Positions 12,424 through 29,328 are shown, numbered from the stretch's first letter. The stretch: DNA of 64,000 nucleotides from an uncultured Alphaproteobacteria bacterium (GCA_944389525.1 CALXMR010000001.1:228658-292657), one strand, 5' to 3'. The notes: generated from the sequence alone by a model not told the origin. Program-made: numbers and translations.

Positions 12424-15084
12424 ATGAAACATTTGCCGTTATCTTTTTTCTTGATTGCGTTTGTGGTGCCATCTGCCTTCGCGGATGGTGTGTCCATATC
12501 GCGTGCAATTCCGGCCAGTAATTCGGTCGCCACATCTGGTGCCAGCACCCGGGATACTGGTGCAAGTTCTGTGCGCCAGGGGGCGTCGCGTACAACAATT
12601 GCTGCGCCGGTCCAGAAATTGACCGCCACATCACAGAACGGTGGTACTGCACGTAGTGTAGCCAGTCGAACCGCCACAACATCAGATACAAATTCTGGGG
12701 TTGTGCGTGTTGGTTCGCGTGTTTTAGATTTGGGTGGGGATGCGTCACAGTCCGTGCGTGGTACTACAACGATACGCGCTGGGGGCAGTGTATCGCGTGC
12801 AGCGGGTGCGACGCATGCGAACACGGCGCGTGATAACTTGGATGCGACGGTAAATACTGTCGGTCGCAATGCCCGGGTTCAGGCGGCCAGTATAAACAAT
12901 AACCCGGCGGTGCGTCGTGCGGGGTTAACCTTGCGTCCATCCACGGCCGAGGTTGGCGGTCGTGCCACGATTGCGGGTACAGATATACAAACAGGTTCTA
13001 ATATTTCTAGCGAGGCTCGAACCGTTTCCGCACGTGCAACGACTAATGCAGATACGATAACCACAGAATCAATCGCCGCGGCCAAGGAACGGATGGATCT
13101 GGCGGCGGATTTGAATTCTTCGTGCCAGCAACAGTATAATGATTGTATGGACCAGTTTTGTTCAGTTATTGATTCCAATCAAAAACGGTGTTCTTGTTCT
13201 GCCAATTTGGACAACTACACTGATGTAGAACAGGCGGTTACCAACGCAAATAACCAGTTAAACGAGGTGGCCCAGCGGATTCGTTATGTCGGCCTGACCG
13301 AAGAAGAAATAGAAGCAATCATGTCCGCGACCGAGGCTGAAGATGCATTGTCTGGGACAAGCGATACAACAGAAACACGAAATTTATTGGCGGAAATCGA
13401 AGAGTTAATACGCGATCCAGCCAGCAGTACTTCGTCATATGCATCGAATTCATCGTCCTTGTTTGGGCTGGATATGGATATAGATTTTACATCAAATTCA
13501 GCGGATTTGTTTAGTTTGGACTTTTTGAACACTGGTGGATCCAGTTTGTCAAATATGCGCGGTCGCCAATTGTATAACGCCGCCAAAAATCGTTGTAAAA
13601 CCATATTGGACCAGTGTGAAGATGCGGGCGCAAATATTGACCAAATTACAGCGAATTACGATTTGGCAATTGATCGGGATTGTATCGCGTATGAACAGGG
13701 GTTGCGTAAAATGAACGAAACATTGGTGTCCAATGTGCGCAGTGCGAACCTGATGTTGCAACAGGCGCGTCTGGCGGTGATGCAGAATCAGAATTTATAT
13801 GACGCCAAGGAATGTGTCGCGGCACTGGATGAATGTATGCGCGATGATATGGTGTGTGGTGACGATTATACAAAATGTTTGGACCCAACGAAAAAGTACA
13901 TCGATGAAAATGGTGATGTTGTTCTGGGCCAGGATATAACCCAAATAATAAAATTTATGGAAAACTATAATAACGCCAGTATAAAAAAGCCACTGTTACA
14001 AGAGGCATACAGTATGCCTATTACGGACGAGAAGTGTGCGACAGAAACTGCAGGTGATAATGCCCCCCTGGTTGGAAATAATGGTGCATGCATTGCAGGA
14101 TATTTATTAAAGAAAATTGGTACCCAGCAGGAGATCACGGACGAAGGCATGTGTCGCGCCGTTTTGGACAAGTGCCAGGCATATACATATGATGATACGG
14201 GTAACTATCTGCCATATAATGACATTGTTGTGAATTATATCCAACGTGCAATGGTGAATATCCAGGCGGCCCAACGGCAAATTATATCTGATTATGCGTC
14301 GACATGTGTGTTGGATATTGCAAACTGCTATAACCAACAGGTGACCCAGGTCAACACATGGTCTTCTGGCGCCAGCGTTAACAGTGTTTATAATGTGATG
14401 CGCGGTGCATGCCGAAATGTGGCACTGACATGTGCGTATGCCGTGTTCAAGGATGATAATACCAGTTGTCCAAAAGGAGATAGGAATGATGACGATGAAT
14501 GTCTGGACAGCATTTCCGAAATGTTCTATCAGTCATTATTGTGTCCAGATAATTCGTCGTATCAATCAGAGTCTGGAACACCAGGAGAAAAAAATTATGT
14601 AAATTCCAGATGTAAGTGTAATTCTGGGTATTCTGTGTATAATGGCCAGTGTGTATTCTGTCCAGGAACAGGCATGACAATTAACGCGCTGGGGCAATGC
14701 GTATGTGATACTGCAAATGGCTTTACAGAAAGTGAAGGCAACTGTATATGCCCCAGCACACATGTTATTGATGATAACGTATGTCGAAAAAAAGTGTGCA
14801 CAGATGCAACGACATCCGCGGAGTGTGCTTCATTAGACTCATGTGTTTGGGGCGATTTTCGCTGTAAGTTCAACGGATCCCCCCCCATTGGGGGATGTAG
14901 TGCCCTGGACTCGGAGGAAAACTGTAAAAACTGGAGTAGGTGTAACTGGAATGGAACCACATGTGTTATTGTTGGCCATGTGGAGCTTGGTAATTGTTCC
15001 GATTATACTACGTCAGACCAGTGTGAAGCAAACGACCTTTGTTACTGGGATGATAATACAAAAAAGTGTTTAACAAATAATTGA
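12424..15084 (+). CDS. Large secreted cysteine-rich protein, paralog 2, with C-terminal EGF-like Cys repeats
   Basis: 886 aa. Signal peptide MKHLPLSFFLIAFVVPSAFA, an S/T/R/A-rich disordered region, CQQQYNDCMDQFCSVIDSNQKRCSCSA (homologous to the paralog-1 motif), and about 60 Cys. The C-terminus carries repeated C.C....C..C units (CKCNSGYSVYNGQCVFCPG..CVCD..CICP). Confidence 0.8.
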   Translation: MKHLPLSFFLIAFVVPSAFADGVSISRAIPASNSVATSGASTRDTGASSVRQGASRTTIAAPVQKLTATSQNGGTARSVASRTATTSDTNSGVVRVGSRVLDLGGDASQSVRGTTTIRAGGSVSRAAGATHANTARDNLDATVNTVGRNARVQAASINNNPAVRRAGLTLRPSTAEVGGRATIAGTDIQTGSNISSEARTVSARATTNADTITTESIAAAKERMDLAADLNSSCQQQYNDCMDQFCSVIDSNQKRCSCSANLDNYTDVEQAVTNANNQLNEVAQRIRYVGLTEEEIEAIMSATEAEDALSGTSDTTETRNLLAEIEELIRDPASSTSSYASNSSSLFGLDMDIDFTSNSADLFSLDFLNTGGSSLSNMRGRQLYNAAKNRCKTILDQCEDAGANIDQITANYDLAIDRDCIAYEQGLRKMNETLVSNVRSANLMLQQARLAVMQNQNLYDAKECVAALDECMRDDMVCGDDYTKCLDPTKKYIDENGDVVLGQDITQIIKFMENYNNASIKKPLLQEAYSMPITDEKCATETAGDNAPLVGNNGACIAGYLLKKIGTQQEITDEGMCRAVLDKCQAYTYDDTGNYLPYNDIVVNYIQRAMVNIQAAQRQIISDYASTCVLDIANCYNQQVTQVNTWSSGASVNSVYNVMRGACRNVALTCAYAVFKDDNTSCPKGDRNDDDECLDSISEMFYQSLLCPDNSSYQSESGTPGEKNYVNSRCKCNSGYSVYNGQCVFCPGTGMTINALGQCVCDTANGFTESEGNCICPSTHVIDDNVCRKKVCTDATTSAECASLDSCVWGDFRCKFNGSPPIGGCSALDSEENCKNWSRCNWNGTTCVIVGHVELGNCSDYTTSDQCEANDLCYWDDNTKKCLTNN

Positions 15085-16349: not shown

Positions 16350-18350
16350 ATGAAACGAATATCCGGATTTTTATTACTGGCGTTGACTTTGATCGTGTCG
16401 GGTGCGTCTGCGTCACCAGTGGCCACCACCGTGGGCAGCAATTTGACCGCATACAATCCAACATCTGGATCAACGAATAACGCCATGTGGAATGCGTACA
16501 TGAACCCACGCAGTAATGTGGCTGCATCTGCCCCGGCGGCAGATTTTGGGAATTGTAATGCGATTATATTGCGCTGTGCCCAGCCAAAGTGTGCAAATGG
16601 TGGATGTTCATCAATGGAAATTGCGCGTCCAATTGTTACAGGGTGTGTTGAATCAAACGCATCGTGTAAACAGTATGGCACGGATTTGATAGAATATATT
16701 GCGGCGCAATTGGTATCTGATTCCACTGCCGCGGCCACCCAGGCCGCTGCCGCCACCCAGGCGGCCGCCGCACAGCAGAGCAATTTGCAAATGCAACAAA
16801 TGCAACAGCAAATGGCCGCGATGCAACAACAAATGCAGCAGCAAAGTGCAGATACCGCCGCCCAGATCCAGGCAGTACTGGAACAGCAATCGGCCGCCAC
16901 CGCGGCGGCAATTGCAGAAGCCACCGCCGCCACACAACAGAATGCGGCCACATCTGTGCAACCGGCACAAACAACCAACGCAACAACACCCGCGGCCACG
17001 GATACATCGGTGAATTTGTCGGCTGGCGCGCTGGATTTAACTGCGGCGCAACAACTGGCGGCGGCATCAGGTGTTGATGCAAACCTGTTGGCGCGTGAAC
17101 AAATTGCGGGCGAAATATTGACTAAAATCGAAAATGCAGAGGTTAATTTAAAATCGGCCAAGGCCGCAATGGATGCGGCGTTTGAATATGCCGGTTGTGA
17201 TTCCACAGGCAGTAATTGTTCTGGCCCGGCCCGTGTCAGCAAATTCAAACAACGGGCGTTGGAATTCTTTGATCCATATAACGATGTGTTGAATGAGCTG
17301 TACGATGCGTTGATTTTGGCGCAATCGGTTGGTGTTGACATTACTGATATTTACATGATGTTGAGTGGCACATGTAATGTCTGGGGTCAATATTTATGCA
17401 CCGAAGGCCAGGTAATGCACTATAATTCATACAATTGTCAAAATGGCAAATCTGTGCCGGTCTATACCGGCGGCGGCATGGTTTATGGCGGTGCAGATTG
17501 CACCCCGGGCCAGGTTGTGCCAATGTCAGACGGTGGATGCCAACTGATAAAAATGCTGACAGACCAGGACGAAGTGCAACGCAATTGGTTATATCCCGAA
17601 GAAGGACTGGACGGTGCCCAGGTGCGCGTTGGTTGCGCATCCGAAGCGTTGGATAATTCGTTCTTGTTCCGCAACCTGAAAAGACAGGCGAGTATTGATA
17701 TAGAGGTTTTACAACGGATAATCGAACAAGATGCGCCGGCGTCATACGGGCGGTTGGGATTGTCATCGACCAGCGGTATGCGTACACCAAAGAATGATGG
17801 TCTGCCATATTGCAAGTTGAACGACAAGACATATCAAGAATTACAAAAAATTGCGACACTGAAACAATTGCCAGACAATATATGTGTCAGTGAAACAAAT
17901 ATGCGCAGAATTGCCGAAAATGGTATACCAATCGCGTCAACAAATAATGAATCTACGATTGCGGCGGCCCAACTGTGTGCATATCAGACAGGCACAGAAA
18001 GAACGAAGTGTATGTGTGAAAAGGTCAATCCAAACGGTGAACAATATTGGGATTCAGCGACAAAGACATGTATATGCCAAAATGGCCAGGTGTTTGATTA
18101 TGATTGCTTTATGTGTGTAAATGAGTTGGGCCAGTGCAAATCGGCAACAGTGTCCGATGCATCTGATGCCAGTTCATGGTCACAATACACAACGACAGAG
18201 TGTTGGAATACTGGTGGCACCCTTGATGTCGGCACAAATCGATGCATGTGCGATGGTTTCCCATATGATCCATTGATAGCAAGGTGCAGTCAAACCCCAG
18301 GATTATCGTTTAAAACCATCGAAAATAAATGGTCTGGGTTCGGTTTATAA
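16350..18350 (+). CDS. Large secreted cysteine-rich protein, paralog 3 (Q/A-rich coiled region, C-terminal EGF-like Cys repeats)
   Basis: Start taken at MKRISGFLLLALTLIVSGASA (signal peptide). About 45 Cys, a poly-Q/A segment, and a C-terminus CMCEKVNPNGEQYWDSATKTCICQNGQVFDYDCFMC...CMCDGFPYDPLIARC like the paralog-2 tail. Its stop overlaps the next gene's start (TAATG). Confidence 0.75.
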   Translation: MKRISGFLLLALTLIVSGASASPVATTVGSNLTAYNPTSGSTNNAMWNAYMNPRSNVAASAPAADFGNCNAIILRCAQPKCANGGCSSMEIARPIVTGCVESNASCKQYGTDLIEYIAAQLVSDSTAAATQAAAATQAAAAQQSNLQMQQMQQQMAAMQQQMQQQSADTAAQIQAVLEQQSAATAAAIAEATAATQQNAATSVQPAQTTNATTPAATDTSVNLSAGALDLTAAQQLAAASGVDANLLAREQIAGEILTKIENAEVNLKSAKAAMDAAFEYAGCDSTGSNCSGPARVSKFKQRALEFFDPYNDVLNELYDALILAQSVGVDITDIYMMLSGTCNVWGQYLCTEGQVMHYNSYNCQNGKSVPVYTGGGMVYGGADCTPGQVVPMSDGGCQLIKMLTDQDEVQRNWLYPEEGLDGAQVRVGCASEALDNSFLFRNLKRQASIDIEVLQRIIEQDAPASYGRLGLSSTSGMRTPKNDGLPYCKLNDKTYQELQKIATLKQLPDNICVSETNMRRIAENGIPIASTNNESTIAAAQLCAYQTGTERTKCMCEKVNPNGEQYWDSATKTCICQNGQVFDYDCFMCVNELGQCKSATVSDASDASSWSQYTTTECWNTGGTLDVGTNRCMCDGFPYDPLIARCSQTPGLSFKTIENKWSGFGL

Positions 18351-19156
18351 TGAAAAGAAATGAACTTATTTTAAACATATTCAAATTTGTGCGCCGCGCG
18401 CTGATTGGGGCGATGTTTGTATTGTGCGTGCCGGCGGTGGCAGCGGTATCGAACAACGGGTGCGATGATGCTGATAATATGTATATAAATCCAGAATTGG
18501 CACTGTGCACCACGCACGCGTATAACGCGGGTTGGCTGGAAAATCCGGAAAATTCTGGGGACAGACAAATGATGAACGATATCATTGCGTTGAAAAGCAC
18601 AGTTATGATGCAGCAGATGTACAAACAGTACGAGTTTTTAGAAGCCACATTAAATCGTATGAAAACGCAACTGCGACGCGAAATATTAACCACCCGGCTA
18701 GAGGCCGCCGGCGCAACCACCAGCGGTGGCGCATCTGGTTCATCATCTGTATCATCTGGATCTGTTGGTGGCAACAACGGTGTTTCCGGGGCAGAAAATT
18801 GTATTGCGGCGGGTTTGTCGGATGATGTTATGGAATGTCTGTTGCGCAATGTTAACAGAATTCAAACGGCAATAAATAATTCCGATATTGGTGCCGCCAA
18901 ACGTCAGATTGATACAGATTTAGATGTATTGGAAATGTACGACAAGCTTGAAAAAAACGCGCCAGATCCGCGCGACAAAGACGGCAACACAAAAATATCC
19001 CCTGCGCTGGCGAATGCATATTCCAAGTGTAACAGTGCACGCAACAACCGTACAGAAATGACAGAGTGTGTTAATTATATTCGCGCATGCATAACCCAGA
19101 ATATAGAATACTTGCAAAATCAAAATCGTGGCGGGTATAATCAGTTTATGCGCTAG
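18350..19156 (+). CDS. Secreted protein, coupled to paralog 3 (hypothetical)
   Basis: 268 aa, start at MKRNELILNIFKFVRRALIGAMFVLCVPAVAAV (signal peptide), a Gly/Ser-rich linker, eight Cys. Confidence 0.65.
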   Translation: MKRNELILNIFKFVRRALIGAMFVLCVPAVAAVSNNGCDDADNMYINPELALCTTHAYNAGWLENPENSGDRQMMNDIIALKSTVMMQQMYKQYEFLEATLNRMKTQLRREILTTRLEAAGATTSGGASGSSSVSSGSVGGNNGVSGAENCIAAGLSDDVMECLLRNVNRIQTAINNSDIGAAKRQIDTDLDVLEMYDKLEKNAPDPRDKDGNTKISPALANAYSKCNSARNNRTEMTECVNYIRACITQNIEYLQNQNRGGYNQFMR

Positions 19157-22080: not shown

Positions 22081-22102
22081 AAAAATCTGGTTATCCGGAT
22101 TT

Positions 22103-23392
22103 TTACTTTTTCTTGCGAATAATATCAACGACTTTTTTACCAAATCCGTATGTGTTTTTGCCCAGTCTTTTAACATCGTCACCAAATTTTTTACCGAAAC
22201 TGGTATCGATTTTTCCACCAATATCTTCTGTGGCGATTTTGTCGGCACGATTTGCCAGATATGCAACCAGACAACCCGTCAACAATGTTATAATAAACCC
22301 ATCATTTTCCAGCGTTGGGATTTCTGACGCCAGATTTGCATCCACTGTGCCTGATAACAATGCTGCACACACGGCGATAACAATAGATAATGATACAAAA
22401 TATATTGCCGCATCAATAAAGCGTTGGATTTGACGCGACAGTGATTCTGGTTTAAACAGTCCTAAAAATCCGTTAAAGATATCACCGGCGATACCCTTGT
22501 ATGATGTTGATTTTATTGTTTCTGCGATTGCGGTAAATGGCAACATTAATACACTTAAAAACAAATCCATAATAACGCCCAGCCCCATCAACAAAAACTT
22601 AAACCCGGTATATAAAAATATCACAATAAATGTGGCGCCAACCAGTACTGTAAATGCACTGGTGCCAATGCCTGCAATCATCCATTTCCATCCCGCCACC
22701 ACCGCTGTTGTAAAAAATCCAGACAGTCGCGTTGGAACGCACAGTATATCTGCGGCGGCATTTGCATCAATTAACATGTTCCCCGATGTATTTGCTGCGG
22801 CATAATCGCGTATCGCCGCGCATGTATCGGGCAATTCTGTGCCAATTGCACCAGCTATTGCATTTAAAATTAAATTTGACATATATGTACCAACACTGAT
22901 GATTGGCCCCATGATCCACATAAACACCTGGGTTGGTCCGAATTGTAATATAATGGACCATATTATAATTACGCCACCTTTTTTGAACAAATTTACTGCG
23001 AAATCCATTGCGCTGGAACCGTTTTTCATCATATTGTATGCTTCAAATATCGACCAGAAAATATATGCGATAATCATAAATATGATTGCGAACCGCACCA
23101 GCGAAGAATCCAATACATCGGCAACGATTGAAAATCCATTCATCATTGCCAGACCAATTTTCGCCTCGAACGGGACATAATCCGAAACAATTGGTTTTGG
23201 TTGAAATTGTTCAATATCGCTGGTCATCCTTAGTTTAAACAACTCGATATTGTCGGCGGTTGCCCAATTGCCGTGATCGCCAACATCTGCCATTGGCAGA
23301 TTAGATGCCGCATATGTTGCGCATGGCATAACGATAACCATGGTAATCACGGCAACAATTATTTTGGCAAAGATGCGTTTTAGTGTGTTCAT
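22103..23392 (-). CDS. Polytopic membrane protein, paralog E of a tandem array (possible VirB6/TrbL-like)
   Basis: 429 aa. N-terminal signal/TM, at least six TM helices, a central loop with paired Cys, and a Lys-rich C-tail (GKKFGDDVKRLGKNTYGFGKKVVDIIRKKK). It abuts the next gene (23392). Confidence 0.5.
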   Translation of the reverse strand: MNTLKRIFAKIIVAVITMVIVMPCATYAASNLPMADVGDHGNWATADNIELFKLRMTSDIEQFQPKPIVSDYVPFEAKIGLAMMNGFSIVADVLDSSLVRFAIIFMIIAYIFWSIFEAYNMMKNGSSAMDFAVNLFKKGGVIIIWSIILQFGPTQVFMWIMGPIISVGTYMSNLILNAIAGAIGTELPDTCAAIRDYAAANTSGNMLIDANAAADILCVPTRLSGFFTTAVVAGWKWMIAGIGTSAFTVLVGATFIVIFLYTGFKFLLMGLGVIMDLFLSVLMLPFTAIAETIKSTSYKGIAGDIFNGFLGLFKPESLSRQIQRFIDAAIYFVSLSIVIAVCAALLSGTVDANLASEIPTLENDGFIITLLTGCLVAYLANRADKIATEDIGGKIDTSFGKKFGDDVKRLGKNTYGFGKKVVDIIRKKK

Positions 23393-24831
23393 TAATCTTT
23401 TTTTCCTGTGGCCTTGGCCACGGCATCAAATATTTGTTGTGGCGCAGACCAGATTTTTTTACCCAGTCCTTTGGCCCAGTTACCAAAATCAAATTCTTCT
23501 TTGCCGCCCCCGGTTATTATTGCATCAACCTTTGGTTTTATTCCATAGAAATACAACAAGAACAGACCAAACATTAATACCAAGAAATCCCACCCGTCAT
23601 CCATAAAATCAAACGCATGTGGATATTCGCGTTCAACAGCGGCGCGCTGTGCGGTGAAACAGGCTTTGAACTTATCCGCATCCATTTCGCCATCTGCTGT
23701 TGCAACGCGTTCACATGTTGAAAATACATTCATAACGGTTAAAGTCTGGGCGTCTGGATTTTCGACCTGATGCCCCATTAATGGTGGCAGAACCGCACTG
23801 TATCCATCGCGTGGCCCAGGAAAGTATGCATCCGCGGCATAGGCAACTATTGCGTATGTAATCAAAACTTTCAGTGTGATACTGACAATCTGCACAGCGG
23901 ATTTTACCAACATATTTATTGCGGATTTCACAACCCCATCGGCCAGTTTCCATGTCTTTTCAAATGCCGCGGCCGCCAATAATAACGGCAAGAATATAAT
24001 CAAAAACACTAACTTGAACACAACAGACAGAATTTGAAATACTAAATCAAATCCGATGACCAAGAACATCAACACTAACGCCAGGCCGGCAAGCCATGTA
24101 AATGCGCCGCCCCCCAACCCCATCCATGCATAGTTCATCAATGAAAAACCGCCCGCTGCCCCGGCCAGCATAACGCTGTTTATATTTCCCATCACACACA
24201 TGAATGGTTGCAAAATAGGATTTAGTATATCGTCTGTTTCATCTGTGGTGACCAATGCGCCACATGTCGCCGCATCAGATATACCTGTTGCCGCCATTGA
24301 TAATTCGGCACCAACAAACAATACTGGTGTGATTGTGATATTAGCAACAGTTTTTAATGCCGCGGTTCCCCCCATGCCCAGCGCGCCCATCAATGCGCCG
24401 ACAATCATTACACGCGCACCCTGGCGCCAGACGGCGTCAAACCATTTCCCAAATTCCAATTTTTTTTCTGCTGTGTCCAGTGTGGCGGTTGTTTTTGCCG
24501 CATCAAAAATGGTTTTCGCAGTATGTATTATCAAAAACAATCCGAATCCAATCGCCATCAGAATCCAGATGTTATCCACCATCGCATTCCAGAACATTTC
24601 AGCCGCCCGGCCAATTACTGCAAATAACTCTGCAATATATCCGCACAAAAAACAACCATTGGCCGATGCGATGTCGCCATTTTCAACACCAATTGCCCCC
24701 AAAAATCCGCCCATACTGGTATATGTTAATGACGCACCACTAAGTGATGATGACAAATACCAAATACCGATACCCAACGCAATTGCGCCCATTAAAAAGC
24801 GTATGGCAATAGATATCAGCGTTGCTTTCAT
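23392..24831 (-). CDS. Polytopic membrane protein, paralog C (possible VirB6/TrbL-like)
   Basis: 479 aa. A signal-like N-terminus, the motif NGCFLCGYIAELF just before a TM helix, at least seven TM helices, a Lys-rich tail. Its start overlaps the upstream gene by 4 nt. Confidence 0.5.
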   Translation of the reverse strand: MKATLISIAIRFLMGAIALGIGIWYLSSSLSGASLTYTSMGGFLGAIGVENGDIASANGCFLCGYIAELFAVIGRAAEMFWNAMVDNIWILMAIGFGLFLIIHTAKTIFDAAKTTATLDTAEKKLEFGKWFDAVWRQGARVMIVGALMGALGMGGTAALKTVANITITPVLFVGAELSMAATGISDAATCGALVTTDETDDILNPILQPFMCVMGNINSVMLAGAAGGFSLMNYAWMGLGGGAFTWLAGLALVLMFLVIGFDLVFQILSVVFKLVFLIIFLPLLLAAAAFEKTWKLADGVVKSAINMLVKSAVQIVSITLKVLITYAIVAYAADAYFPGPRDGYSAVLPPLMGHQVENPDAQTLTVMNVFSTCERVATADGEMDADKFKACFTAQRAAVEREYPHAFDFMDDGWDFLVLMFGLFLLYFYGIKPKVDAIITGGGKEEFDFGNWAKGLGKKIWSAPQQIFDAVAKATGKKD

Positions 24832-26102
24832 TTTGTTGTGCTGCCTTTTTTATCACCAGATTTATCATCAGATTTAGCGCCAGGTTTATCACCGGATTTG
24901 TCACCTGATTTATCGTCTGTATTTCCGCCCGATATAATTATTTTTCCCGCCTTTTTAACGCTTTTAATAATATTTGATGTCAGTTTCATTGTACCATCTG
25001 CCAGTTCTTCAGATAATTGATTTTCTTGTGATACACCAAACGAATCCAACACCATTTGTGTCACTGTTGGAATTTGTGCGTACAGAAAGTTTAACACATA
25101 AACCAAGATTATGCACCCACCCAGTGTAATTGCGGCTAGATTATCTTCGGATAAATCACCGGCAAATATTTCACCACTGGTAATCAAAGTCATGATATCG
25201 GTCGCGCTTTGTCCCGGGGCAGAAAAGAATTTTGCAATAATTACCATAATAACGGTATATGTCAGCACCGCCGCCGCCAACGCGATAATGGAATTTATCA
25301 GTTTTTTAAATTGGTCTGTTCCAACATCCTTGCCCAGATTTGAAATCCATGATGGTGCGTCCGCGCCCTTGAACGCGACCAGAATCAAAGACAAAGGAAA
25401 CAAGAACGCAAAGAATGTCATCGCAACAATTATATCCGCAAAATAACAGCAAAATCGCCAGAATAATTTAAAGAACGCATACGCCAGATATAACCCGATA
25501 AAGAATAAAATAATATGCTTTATCAGCGCGCCAACGCCCAACAGCGCAGACAGCGAAAACGCCTTGTCCATTATTGCGATTCCCAATTTTATGTACGATT
25601 GAAATTGGGTAATAGTTGTTTTCATCAGCATAATAATACTGTCGCGCAGTTCTGGCCGGAAAAATCCATCATCAGATATTTCCATTGGTTGATATGTTAC
25701 GCGTTCATTCACTGTTTCTGAATCTGTTTGTAACATACTTTGCGTATATATCAGTGTAATATTGGCAACAGGTTCGAATGTAATTGATGAAACAAATCGT
25801 GGCAGGTAGACCCCCATACTAAGAAACGCCAACGACACCAATGAATTTATGATAACTGGTTTTAACGATTTTTGATACAGTGGGTCTGTGATTTTTCCAT
25901 CTTTATCACCTTTGAGATTTTTCCATACGGCATTTATCACAAAGAACGCAAACAGCACACAAAATATTATCGCACAGAATACGGCAAATTGATCATACAC
26001 TGCGGCGGCGGCATTTGAAATGATAACAAACAGTCGGTCAAACACCGGACAGCCCCAACACTGTACCGCAGAATCGACCAAAGGATTTAGAATATTGTTC
26101 AT
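24828..26102 (-). CDS. Polytopic membrane protein, paralog B (possible VirB6/TrbL-like) with a C-terminal (SGDK)n repeat tail
   Basis: 424 aa. CWGCPVFDRLF motif, multiple TM helices, and a tail NTDDKSGDKSGDKPGAKSDDKSGDKKGSTTK. It overlaps the upstream gene by 4 nt. Confidence 0.5.
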   Translation of the reverse strand: MNNILNPLVDSAVQCWGCPVFDRLFVIISNAAAAVYDQFAVFCAIIFCVLFAFFVINAVWKNLKGDKDGKITDPLYQKSLKPVIINSLVSLAFLSMGVYLPRFVSSITFEPVANITLIYTQSMLQTDSETVNERVTYQPMEISDDGFFRPELRDSIIMLMKTTITQFQSYIKLGIAIMDKAFSLSALLGVGALIKHIILFFIGLYLAYAFFKLFWRFCCYFADIIVAMTFFAFLFPLSLILVAFKGADAPSWISNLGKDVGTDQFKKLINSIIALAAAVLTYTVIMVIIAKFFSAPGQSATDIMTLITSGEIFAGDLSEDNLAAITLGGCIILVYVLNFLYAQIPTVTQMVLDSFGVSQENQLSEELADGTMKLTSNIIKSVKKAGKIIISGGNTDDKSGDKSGDKPGAKSDDKSGDKKGSTTK

Positions 26103-27388
26103 TTCTTTTTAATCCACCCGATTGCTGTGCCAATTGATTTTTTAATATTACCGGCTGTTTTAATCATAATTTTACTGTCTGATTTAACCTGGTTATACAG
26201 GTTATCCATACCCTTGCCGACATAGTTATCCAGTTGTTCGCGCGTCAGTTTAAATATACGCAGCATCAAATAGAATGTCAGTATCGCAGACAGCCATAAT
26301 ACCGAATGTTGCCCAAATCCCATTGCACTGTGTGCCACCTGGGGAACATTAGACGATGCCGCCCCACCGGCCGCCACAACAAATACAGACGATGACCATT
26401 GAAACAGCGCCCTGATAACAGCGATATTCACGCACAAAATAAACGCGCACGCAATCATCGTGATAACCAGTTTTTGCAATGCCTTGGTTATGCCACCAAA
26501 CGCCGGCCATATATCGAACCATTTATCACTGGGTTTTATTACATAGGTCAGCACCTGGAACGGATACAGAATCAACGCCATTCCGAAATTAAATATTGCC
26601 TGGATAATTAACAGTGCCATAAATAAATTACTGGCGACAAAGGTAAATACCAGCAATATTCCCGTAACCAGATTCAAGAAATCTTCGCCACCATGTGGAA
26701 CCAGTGTAATCAACCCACGCAACCCGGTCGTGATAAATTGGAATCCGCGCTTTATAATTTGATTGTTTGCGTGCGATATCTCGGATACAGGCTGTACCAA
26801 GAATTCGCAACTTTCTTTGGAAATCCAACCTTGGTCAATAACAGACTGGGGGCATTCAATTTTTGGTGCGGCCGATGTACCGGCGTTTATGGTGTCTGTG
26901 ATGCTTTCTGTATAAATTGCACCGAATTGCAAAAATGGATTAACCAGCCATTCTGTCAGATATACCGGCCGTAATTGTAACAATACGGCCGCGGCGATGA
27001 TTGCACGAATTCCGGGCTTTAATAAGTTTGTGGCGATTGTAAAGCTGCCGATACCTTCGTACATTTCGCCGCCGCCAGAAAAACCAAAGAATGACACCCA
27101 CATTTTTGGAAAATACATTTTTATCAGATATAACGCCATACTGACGGCCAAGAATCCCCAAACCAATATGTAAATAATTCCATCGCCGTTGCCGACAAAG
27201 AATTCGTATCCACCCGATGCGATTGTCATCAACGCGTCCAAGATTGTCGGAATCAGTGGTGCCAGATTTAATGCATCGACAATATTTCCATCGGCACCAA
27301 ACGCAAATCCTGGTACAAAAATCACCGCCATTACAACCATTGCGGCACGCAAAAATATATGAAAAAAATTGCGTTTCAGGAAAAACAT
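26099..27388 (-). CDS. Polytopic membrane protein, paralog A, first gene of the minus-strand array
   Basis: 429 aa. Signal peptide MVVMAVIFVPGFAFGADG, multiple TM helices, and a Lys-rich tail. Confidence 0.5.
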   Translation of the reverse strand: MFFLKRNFFHIFLRAAMVVMAVIFVPGFAFGADGNIVDALNLAPLIPTILDALMTIASGGYEFFVGNGDGIIYILVWGFLAVSMALYLIKMYFPKMWVSFFGFSGGGEMYEGIGSFTIATNLLKPGIRAIIAAAVLLQLRPVYLTEWLVNPFLQFGAIYTESITDTINAGTSAAPKIECPQSVIDQGWISKESCEFLVQPVSEISHANNQIIKRGFQFITTGLRGLITLVPHGGEDFLNLVTGILLVFTFVASNLFMALLIIQAIFNFGMALILYPFQVLTYVIKPSDKWFDIWPAFGGITKALQKLVITMIACAFILCVNIAVIRALFQWSSSVFVVAAGGAASSNVPQVAHSAMGFGQHSVLWLSAILTFYLMLRIFKLTREQLDNYVGKGMDNLYNQVKSDSKIMIKTAGNIKKSIGTAIGWIKKK

Positions 27389-27457
27389 TCTCTCGCTTGT
27401 TATTTTATCTTTTCAATTATATCACATTTCAGGCAAAATATGATATACTTAAAAACA

Positions 27458-28747
27458 ATGAGCAAGTTAAAAAAATTCTGGATAGTTTTTTTATCGTTCT
27501 TGCCTTTTTCGGCGGGCGCGGTGGCACCATTTGTTGTTGGTGCGATTGCCGGTGTCGGTGTAATTGCCGGATTTTCGATATACAGAACGACTGTGCCGGT
27601 TGATATGGCGGGTGCCATGAATTTCTTTTCCAGTTGTTGGTCGTGCCAGATGTTTTCAGATATTATGGCGACAATGTCTGGATTATTGCCGCGTGTATAT
27701 AATGCGATTGGCGCGGCGGTATTACCATTTTGTGCGGGTTTGATGGCGATTTGGTTTGCGTGGAAATTATTTTCGGGATTTATAAATTCAAAGGTCGAAG
27801 AACCATGGTCAATCGTCAGCGATTTTGGCACAAAGTTCATAAAATTGGCATTTGTTGGTGCGCTGGTTATGGTGCCACTGCCGCGAATGTTGACCGATAT
27901 TGTGATTGAACCAATATTTAATGTCGGATTATCGCTGAACAGGGTTGTGGCTGGCAATGACGAATTTGCCAAGTGTGTTGTCGCAACCGCCATTGCCGAC
28001 CCCGTTTCGGTCAGCAGTGCGGCCGCGGCAGATGGGGCGTTTTCACCGCGCCTGCGACACAACCTGGCGTGCGAGATTGCAAATGTTCATCAGATGACCG
28101 GATTGGGTATGACAGTCGGTTGGACCATGCTGAATATGGCATTTGATTCAGAATATATGCACAAAATTATGTGGGAAATTCCGATTTTTCCAAATGTGCC
28201 GATTTTCTTTGCCGGGCTGCTGATACTGGTATTATTCTTTTTTGCATTGATACCAGTGCCATTGTATTTCCTAGAAGTGTTTATAACCCTGGCCATGGAT
28301 TTGATAATGTTGCCATTTATGTTGATGTCGTGGCTGTTTCGGGGCTGGGGAATATTCCCCAACGGCGGGCGCAATATACAAAACATGATAGATGATGTTA
28401 TCAAGGCAACAGCGGGTATCGCGCTGGTTGGGGTATTTGTCACATTTTCAATAATGTTTTTAAATGCGATATTCGGTCAATGGGACGGTGCAAACAGATT
28501 GGAATTAGCGATGCAGCAAAATGACCCCACAATATTGATGGATGGTTTGATGATGCGTAACGACAGTATTATAACGATTCTGTTGATGGGAATATTTATG
28601 GCGATGTTCATGACAATGATACCGACATTGGTAAAAACATTGTTTGCGAATGTTAAAATCCCAACAGACGCATACGAAACAGCCAAAAGAGATCTGAAAA
28701 TCCTGCAAAAAAGGGTGCAAAAATGGTACGAATCACTAAAAAAATAA
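27458..28747 (+). CDS. Polytopic membrane protein, paralog D, divergently transcribed from the array
   Basis: Start taken at MSKLKKFWIVFLSFLPFSAGA (signal peptide). CWSCQMFSDIM motif like paralogs B and C, at least eight TM helices, a basic C-tail. Confidence 0.5.
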   Translation: MSKLKKFWIVFLSFLPFSAGAVAPFVVGAIAGVGVIAGFSIYRTTVPVDMAGAMNFFSSCWSCQMFSDIMATMSGLLPRVYNAIGAAVLPFCAGLMAIWFAWKLFSGFINSKVEEPWSIVSDFGTKFIKLAFVGALVMVPLPRMLTDIVIEPIFNVGLSLNRVVAGNDEFAKCVVATAIADPVSVSSAAAADGAFSPRLRHNLACEIANVHQMTGLGMTVGWTMLNMAFDSEYMHKIMWEIPIFPNVPIFFAGLLILVLFFFALIPVPLYFLEVFITLAMDLIMLPFMLMSWLFRGWGIFPNGGRNIQNMIDDVIKATAGIALVGVFVTFSIMFLNAIFGQWDGANRLELAMQQNDPTILMDGLMMRNDSIITILLMGIFMAMFMTMIPTLVKTLFANVKIPTDAYETAKRDLKILQKRVQKWYESLKK

Positions 28748-28815: not shown

Positions 28816-29328
28816 ATGAAGCAGTTTCCGATTCTTTATTGGCCGCGCAAGACAACCGCTGATAATGATTACCAGCTGGCGCGCAAGGTTATAAACAATG
28901 CCACCGGCGTTATGCCAGATGTTTTAACCGGTGAACTGGATTTAGTGGGATTTTTGTCTGAAAATCCTAATGCAACAGTATATTATCCGGTTTTTTGCGA
29001 ATCGACAGGTTGGTGGGGTGAATTATTGGGCGCACCGGCCATGGTGACAGATAAAATGATTATTTCCCCAGAATGCCAGTTGATGGTTATTGAATCTGCA
29101 AAAAATGCATCGCGCGGGCGCGGAAAAAATCAATTGTTGGCGGCAGAAATCTATCCGACCAGCGGATTTTTCAAAAAAATGAATTCTGGAATTGCGACCG
29201 TGGCGGATATGTTGGCAACAGATGCGGGCACAATATTGGCACTGTTTTCCGGAAAAAGCCAAAGCCAATTTGTAAACATTCTGGAATCGACCGGTAATTC
29301 ATATTTGGGGTGTATCGGTCGTTTTTAG
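28816..29328 (+). CDS. Hypothetical protein
   Basis: 170-aa ORF, no signal peptide, no recognisable motif. Confidence 0.4.
   Translation: MKQFPILYWPRKTTADNDYQLARKVINNATGVMPDVLTGELDLVGFLSENPNATVYYPVFCESTGWWGELLGAPAMVTDKMIISPECQLMVIESAKNASRGRGKNQLLAAEIYPTSGFFKKMNSGIATVADMLATDAGTILALFSGKSQSQFVNILESTGNSYLGCIGRF

Follow-up and report, generated by a model that had tools for sequence, protein, structure and literature searches.

A conserved array of five deeply diverged VirB6-like genes in Candidatus Enterousia, a candidate platform of a dispersed type IV secretion system

Layout of the five-gene array

A stretch of 64,000 nucleotides from an uncultured Alphaproteobacteria bacterium (GCA_944389525.1, CALXMR010000001.1:228658-292657), which we call the window throughout, carries five adjacent genes for polytopic membrane proteins of 424-479 amino acids (aa) according to open reading frame (ORF) calls. 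Four of them (A, B, C, and D) lie on the minus strand and the fifth (E) on the plus strand, divergent from D. The comparisons reported here indicate that the five are ancient paralogs of the VirB6/TrbL superfamily, and make it fairly probable that they serve as inner-membrane platform subunits for a type IV secretion system (T4SS) whose genes are dispersed, as in Rickettsiales. The elements of the array are listed below, with positions counted from the first letter of the window.

22081-22104, between the convergent uvrD and A: hairpin with flanking A- and T-runs and a 10-bp stem (terminator scan)
22103-23392, minus strand: gene A, 429 aa; VirB6-like paralog and last gene of the operon; without CxxC; conserved C191, C218, and C342
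23392-24831, minus strand: gene B, 479 aa; VirB6-like paralog; CFLC (C60/C63) and the cysteine pairs C190/C212 and C373/C391
24828-26102, minus strand: gene C, 424 aa; VirB6-like paralog; CWGC at residues 15-18, without a preceding transmembrane segment; (SGDK)n tail
24849-24914, minus strand: tandem repeat in C, 12 nt in 5.5 copies (TRF), encoding the (SGDK)n tail
26099-27388, minus strand: gene D, 429 aa; VirB6-like paralog heading the minus-strand operon; signal-peptide-like N-terminus; without CxxC
27389-27439: divergent intergenic region between D and E, 51 bp
27440-28747, plus strand: gene E, 435 aa as called; VirB6-like paralog; CWSC (C93/C96 in ORF numbering) and the cysteine pair C206/C238

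The original prediction, made from the sequence of the window, had described five adjacent genes of these lengths, overlapping by 1-4 nt on the minus strand and with the fifth gene divergent, and this layout is confirmed at the coordinates above: D and C overlap by 4 nt, C and B by 4 nt, and B and A by 1 nt, and the genes A-D are predicted to be translationally coupled. The longest ORF of E spans 27359-28747 (462 aa); the gene callers used on public contigs start it at 27440, which gives 435 aa. The gap between D and E is so short that any promoters must overlap the coding starts, and a promoter scan of this region returned weak promoter-like matches only. At the opposite end, the hairpin between A and uvrD is a likely bidirectional terminator that closes the operon.

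Hydropathy (Kyte-Doolittle) gives each of the five proteins around 4-7 separate hydrophobic stretches above threshold, i.e., at least four candidate helices, which points to multi-pass proteins. Lysine-rich C-terminal tails are present on all five, as had been proposed, and the tail of C is indeed an (SGDK)n repeat produced by the 12-nt tandem repeat. The copy number of this repeat differs among close strains, so that the C proteins of one 90%-identity cluster have 416, 424, 428, or 432 aa. Two other traits that had been thought common to the array hold for part of it. The CxxC motif is confined to B, as CFLC, to C, as CWGC, and to E, as CWSC, and is 100% conserved in these three; A and D have none. 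A shared N-terminal signal or anchor is lacking in C, where no signal, anchor, or transmembrane segment precedes the motif; the N-terminus of D is signal-peptide-like.

Ancient paralogy and membership of the VirB6/TrbL superfamily

The pairwise identities among the five proteins are around 20-25% (BLAST), and a single pair, C-E, is significant (E-value 4e-12). We built profiles of the five families, each with 76-81 sequences (the window protein and its orthologs), and aligned them with hhalign. The alignments are colinear for C-E (97%), A-D (94%), A-E (88%), A-B (82%), and B-E (72%), with inter-family scores of 41-90 vs. 16-25 for reversed-sequence controls; B-D and C-D show no direct profile-profile link by this method. 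The order E-D-C-B-A is found in 79 of 84 related loci of Candidatus Enterousia (order Rs-D84), the remaining five being truncated by contig ends. Orthologs of A were identified in 83 loci (43-100% identity), and the median identity of the array genes across 55 genomes is 59-73%, vs. 75% for uvrD.

The same set of genes extends to lineages whose G+C content (GC) ranges from 36% to 55%. In locus L103 (55% GC), five genes run in one direction, repeat the CxxC pattern, and correspond one-to-one to E, D, C, B, and A (hmmsearch E-values of 3e-93 for its first gene and E, 2e-64 for the second and D, 6e-80 for the third and C, 7e-77 for B, and 2e-66 for the fifth and A), and L106 has a co-directional one-to-one set of the same kind. 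One-to-one orthologs are also present in L107 (52% GC) and L109 (36% GC), where E is inverted as in the window. The co-directional order of L103 and L106 indicates an ancestral operon E-D-C-B-A, relative to which the E of the window is, on this comparison, inverted, the inversion being secondary. Further away, five tandem paralogs with a B-like gene in fourth position occur in L086 (57% GC), L097 (27%), and L104 (35%), and L095 and L102 have four or more paralogs each. When aligned to these distant arrays with hhalign, the E family matches all five positions (95-98.5%), C reaches 88-97.6%, B 99.7%, A 95.5% (position 5), and D 80% (position 1). One-to-one orthology between the Enterousia genes and the positions of L086 and L097 is clear for B and position 4 only.

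None of A-E carries a name in the public sources that we searched, which makes the family invisible to annotation-based surveys of secretion systems. Their place in the VirB6/TrbL superfamily emerges through relatives. We used the Pfam family PF04610 (TrbL) with its gathering score of 25.9 bits as the minimum for the whole protein, and this is passed by two distant relatives of B, P0171 (35.7 bits) and P0162 (27.6 bits). TrbL is the sole recurrent Pfam family among the relatives of B (6 of 32), and an exhaustive search with the B-family profile returned 82 representatives among 1.84 billion proteins. For a comparison of each family, we used a reference set of 31 relatives of a protein that PGAP names as a T4SS component, most of them PF04610-positive. 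The E profile aligns with this set over 249 columns (hhalign 95.7%, score 71, E-value 1e-8), with the CWxC motifs in register; C scores 43 (61%), B 37, A 34.5, and D 33 (13%), vs. 14-24 for reversed controls. Set against composition-matched controls, the profile signal of E is clear, that of C moderate, and those of A, B, and D marginal. Four of the five positions of the distant arrays match the same set at 94-98.6%. An AlphaFold model of B obtained with the distant relatives in the alignment has a pLDDT (predicted local distance difference test) of 76.3 and a pTM (predicted template modelling score) of 0.71; with a shallow alignment of orthologs, the pLDDT was 43.7. We took the VirB6 fold to be that seen in TrwI, a bundle of around seven alpha-helices that are long and for the most part hydrophobic, and the model gives B this fold. 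Taken together, these comparisons place all five families in the VirB6/TrbL superfamily, firmly for B and E, with good support for C and A, and most weakly for D. The VirB6/TrbL-like reading of the original prediction is thus upheld at the level of the superfamily by profile comparison; the membership of the window proteins in PF04610 itself is transitive, via their relatives.

This reference set amounts to the CWGC subgroup of PF04610, found on megaplasmids of sphingomonads (e.g., WP_115418074.1 of Erythrobacter aureus), and its members are the closest annotated relatives of the array: they pass PF04610 and have the PGAP name 'type IV secretion system protein'. All members of the set have an invariant CWGC and a second cysteine pair that align with E, and these features are shared with C and B as well. 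The motif CWxC also recurs in the distant arrays, and the TrbL of plasmid R751 has no cysteine. From these patterns, A-E and their relatives form what we regard as a distinct clade with a CWxC motif. The sphingomonad genes are single-copy, with two small genes upstream, and do not form a five-gene array; their replicons have 350-660 kb, and a relative of the reference protein was found in two of 72,556 plasmids. Like gene A in the window, the sphingomonad gene stands tail-to-tail with a uvrD-family gene. We considered this adjacency as a functional link between the two and rejected it: the UvrD proteins are only 34-37% identical, and we leave it as an unexplained coincidence. The surroundings of the sphingomonad genes in L088 (NZ_CP031358.1), L100, and L101 (CP035502.1) form a conserved module with an SLT gene, a recD-like helicase, the two small genes, the VirB6-like gene and uvrD tail-to-tail, ribonucleotide reductase (RNR), dUTPase, and single-stranded DNA-binding protein (SSB). 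In L103, a secreted thioredoxin-like protein of 186 aa with a CPYC motif is encoded directly downstream of the E-D-C-B-A operon (L103:12650-13210). It suggests a dedicated periplasmic disulphide catalyst, which fits a disulphide chemistry of the conserved cysteines.

Two other accounts of the array were considered. In one, the genes would result from recent tandem duplication and the copies would be redundant or decaying, an idea close to the expansion by tandem duplication that the original prediction had considered. The similar length of the neighbouring genes and the repetitive tail of C speak for it. Against it stand the identity of around 20% between copies, the existence of a separate one-to-one ortholog for each gene in genomes of 36-55% GC, and the conservation, near that of uvrD, of a set that is intact in 79 genomes. 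We give this account practically no credence: the five genes are ancient, deep paralogs and not recent duplicates. In the other, A-E would be a family of polytopic transporters unrelated to VirB6, and the TrbL signal would reflect the hydrophobic, all-helical composition of the proteins. This is already largely refuted for B and E, and we consider it very improbable for the array.

Search for a type IV secretion system and the proposed platform

The window comes from the chromosome of an uncultured alphaproteobacterium of the gut. The closest named genomes are metagenome-assembled genomes (MAGs) of Candidatus Enterousia and MAGs labelled 'uncultured Alphaproteobacteria/Rickettsiales', two of them circular (958,618 and 716,531 bp), and exact copies of the A-E proteins are present on gut-metagenome contigs of ENA and Logan of up to 392 kb. 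Enterousia genomes have 0.75-1.0 Mb and lack the tricarboxylic acid cycle, respiration, and flagella, as well as the standard transporters for sugars, amino acids, or peptides, and most biosynthesis, from which a partner-dependent lifestyle was inferred; the 2025 paper that describes them mentions no secretion system (PMC12306168). Enterousia and Rs-D84 are common gut bacteria with genomes below 1 Mb (PMC12306168).

We searched for the remaining parts of a T4SS with phmmer, using eleven R751 T4SS proteins as queries. The targets, around 2 Mb in total, were 13,484 ORFs taken from the window and from 108 further loci; of the 109 loci retrieved, that of the R751 seeds was excluded. A single match was found, a VirD4/TraG coupling protein close to the array of one Enterousia genome.

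L063:2253-4502, plus strand: VirD4/TraG coupling protein, 749 aa, in the Candidatus Enterousia sp. MAG JAZRLB010000008.1; between rsmE and suhB, 1.7 kb from E

Full-length homologs of this protein (70-92% identity; Pfam PF10412, PF02534, and PF12696) make up at least 120 clusters, several of which have NCBI names as T4SS coupling proteins, from MAGs labelled 'Alphaproteobacteria bacterium'. The longest contig of one such cluster has 201,727 bp, as does the contig with the array of L041, and the two may be the same contig. Judging from these matches, a conserved VirD4 coupling protein is present in the genus Enterousia. VirD4 coupling proteins are not known outside T4SSs.

The known systems that most resemble the array are the rvh T4SSs of Rickettsiales (RvhB6a-e or VirB6-1 to VirB6-4), where multicopy VirB6 is a hallmark, along with duplicated VirB4, VirB8, and VirB9 and the absence of VirB5 (PMC11077975). 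In Rickettsia, there are five VirB6 paralogs that are around 80% divergent, their VirB6/TrbL domain has 413 aa on average, and the T4SS genes occupy scattered islets (PMC2653234). Both groups combine a reduced alphaproteobacterial genome with VirB6 paralogs that stand in tandem and have diverged deeply; the five conserved paralogs found here reproduce the multicopy hallmark, and the 424-479 aa of the Enterousia proteins are near the average of the rickettsial domain. Yet, rickettsial proteins are extended to 674-1154 aa (PMC2653234) and those of Enterousia consist of the domain only, none exceeding 600 aa, in agreement with the remark in the original prediction that they are shorter than rickettsial VirB6. 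Moreover, Enterousia belongs to the order Rs-D84, outside Rickettsiales. Arrays of VirB6 paralogs are therefore known; this clade, its CWxC signature, the domain-only form, the E-D-C-B-A order, the distance from virB3/virB4, and the host outside Rickettsiales have no description in the literature that we searched.

At the foot of the R388 stalk, VirB6 forms an inner-membrane pentamer with C5 symmetry (PMC9259494), and DotA is a pentameric protochannel (PMC12857230). TrwI, the VirB6 of R388 (PDB 7O3V, 8RT9, and 8RTD), is the product of one gene and forms a homo-pentamer capped by VirB5; its sequence similarity to A-E is undetectable, the A-E proteins are larger and have conserved cysteines and Lys-rich tails, and no VirB5 was found near the array. 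DotA, with 857 residues in the solved chain, has no sequence similarity to A-E either, and is part of a type IVB system with around 27 components. With the canonical conjugative TrbL of R751 (IncP), the array has in common the name of the Pfam family and the polytopic nature; R751 TrbL is cysteine-free and lies within a complete trb operon.

We propose that the products of A-E would co-assemble into one VirB6-like inner-membrane platform, in the simplest case a hetero-pentamer that contains each protein once, that the conserved periplasmic cysteines (CWxC and the further pairs) would stabilise it, and that it would serve a T4SS whose other genes are scattered over the small chromosome, as in Rickettsiales. 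Through such a T4SS, a gut bacterium that depends on others for its metabolism would be able to exchange macromolecules with its partner. Five paralogs that are not interchangeable, are fixed in order, and are coupled suggest one platform with one copy of each. The pentamer itself is proposed by analogy, from two elements: the five conserved paralogs and the C5 symmetry of TrwI and DotA. Co-assembly, the one-of-each stoichiometry, the disulphides, the membership of a T4SS in this genome, and the substrate are what we infer. As for the broader statement, that A-E are platform subunits in the inner membrane, belonging to a T4SS dispersed in the manner of Rickettsiales, we hold it to be reasonably likely, because VirD4 is conserved in the genus. 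A more specific and far-reaching version is that E, D, C, B, and A form an obligate hetero-pentamer within an unrecognised and widespread CWxC secretion or exchange apparatus of uncultured bacteria with reduced genomes, in animal guts and elsewhere. This apparatus would be either a highly dispersed T4SS or a VirB6-only channel, and would supply the transporter-poor cells with metabolites or DNA from partner cells; we regard this version as doubtful.

A number of results weigh against a T4SS platform. Some concern the missing partners. The principal ORFs of the window of at least 150 aa include no T4SS gene by Pfam, and eleven T4SS proteins of R751 found nothing among its stop-to-stop ORFs of at least 60 aa, in line with the original prediction that other T4SS genes are absent from it. 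The next 10 kb past its right end have none either, and its left side ends at an rRNA operon. VirB2-B5, VirB8-B11, and VirD4 were found neither in the 64-kb window nor within 10 kb of the arrays of other lineages, and over the 10-kb flanks of at least 100 loci neither VirB4 nor core T4SS genes accompany the array, VirD4 in L063 being the sole exception. The VirD4 seen in the genus is not in the window, and VirB4 is nowhere in the data examined, which cover around 8% of the genome. In Rickettsia, by comparison, the virB6 array directly follows virB3-virB4 (PMC2653234), and there is no such neighbour here. The sphingomonad loci have no other T4SS gene within 10 kb, and one of their plasmids is typed as non-mobilizable. 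Other results concern the homology itself. A search with PF04610, proposed along with the original prediction, leaves B below threshold (20.1 bits, E-value 6e-4) and gives no match for A, C, D, or E, nor for any of 111 orthologs of these four; NCBIfam has no match for any of the five. Similarity of R751 TrbL to the families (hhalign) or to the loci (phmmer) is undetectable, D is the family most weakly linked to VirB6, and a structural model was obtained for B alone. Searches of PDB sequences gave nothing meaningful, whether the query was a B-family profile, P0171, the profile of the CWGC clade, the 170-aa protein encoded beside E, or a 785-aa protein of L086.

In an alternative reading, A-E would form a stand-alone VirB6-like channel that functions without a T4SS. 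A bacterium short of standard transporters and biosynthetic pathways might use it for the uptake or exchange of nutrients, DNA, or nucleotides. Around ten lineages or contexts lack a canonical T4SS gene within 10 kb of the array, save for VirD4 in one Enterousia genome, and the single-copy CWGC relatives sit amid helicase, RNR, SSB, and SLT genes on a plasmid typed as non-mobilizable. In the published reconstruction of Rs-D84 genomes, membrane proteins without an explanation are noted and a secretion system is not named (PMC12306168). There are also precedents for the idea: inward DNA transport is proposed for the archaeal CedA (PMC11868833), and DNA import has been the subject of speculation for rickettsial VirB6 (PMC2653234). 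However, VirD4 is conserved in the clade beside housekeeping genes, the VirB6 and DotA proteins of solved structure act only within T4SS machines, and the dispersal of T4SS genes is normal in Rickettsiales, while a small part of the genome is visible here. We thus consider a channel of this kind unlikely and favour the platform of a dispersed T4SS.

Together, the strictly conserved five-gene module of VirB6 type and the conserved VirD4 are a testable candidate for the cell-to-cell interface of these bacteria. With the array, an odd rickettsial trait, the possession of five diverged paralogs of VirB6, is seen in other lineages beyond that order, and the finding ties five paralogs to the five-fold symmetry of VirB6 and DotA. 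The hetero-pentamer, if true, would suggest an explanation for the multiplication of VirB6 in Rickettsia.

Neighbouring genes and other observations

The array is surrounded by dnaQ, uvrD, a 170-aa orphan, rpmE, a gene of the inositol monophosphatase family (suhB), PBP1A, mraY, ftsW, and murG. The orphan is the closest of them to E.

28816-29328, plus strand: 170-aa gene of unknown function, downstream of E at a distance of 69 bp; synteny conserved throughout the genus; uncertain part of the system

Its median identity across 55 genomes is 80%, above that of the array genes. Searches of Pfam and PDB gave no match for it, and no homolog lies beside the arrays of L103 or L104.

The left part of the window has two further peculiarities. 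Proteins with a Sec signal and rich in cysteine (7-44 cysteines, with 27-44 in several of them; 3-5% of residues) are encoded at 4362-4859, 9556-11793, 12424-15084, 16350-18350, and 18350-19156. No protein of this cluster has a Pfam match, and for two ORFs, orf666 and orf268, orthologs with a coverage of 70% or more were absent from 55 related genomes; the cysteine-rich orphans are probably fast-evolving surface proteins. The 23S rRNA (194-2477) has 2284 nt vs. the 2925 nt of the Rfam model: 29 nt (around 208-236) replace model positions around 15-565, i.e., most of domain I, and the 5' strand of helix 1 is kept. There is no second fragment of the large-subunit rRNA in the window, and domain I may be encoded elsewhere, lost, or missing through an assembly artefact.

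Small genes of 72-108 aa, with two hydrophobic stretches and a charged tail by eye, stand 5' of the arrays of other lineages and have no counterpart in the window. They were considered as VirB3, whose size they fit, and rejected, given that the Pfam signal of VirB2/VirB3 is absent. The distant five-paralog arrays of L086, L097, and L104, from unrelated lineages of 27-57% GC, are accompanied by a common cluster of genes (L086:1-4476, L097:658-4484, and L104:105-5399). A gene of 78-95 aa lies directly 5' of the array, and a divergent cluster encodes proteins of around 140 aa (weakly matching SUKH/SMI1 in L097), around 190 aa (33-36% identical between lineages), around 330 aa, and a large one of 447-921 aa; a gene with a ribbon-helix-helix (RHH) domain is found beside the arrays of L097 and L104. 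These accessory genes have no confident Pfam match and no homolog in the window. Finally, L102 corresponds to MT835708.1 ('UNVERIFIED: Bacteriophage sp.', from human faeces), which has four tandem VirB6-like paralogs (448-972 aa) and shares synteny with L095, a bacterial contig; this sole match in the phage collection is probably a misfiled bacterial contig.

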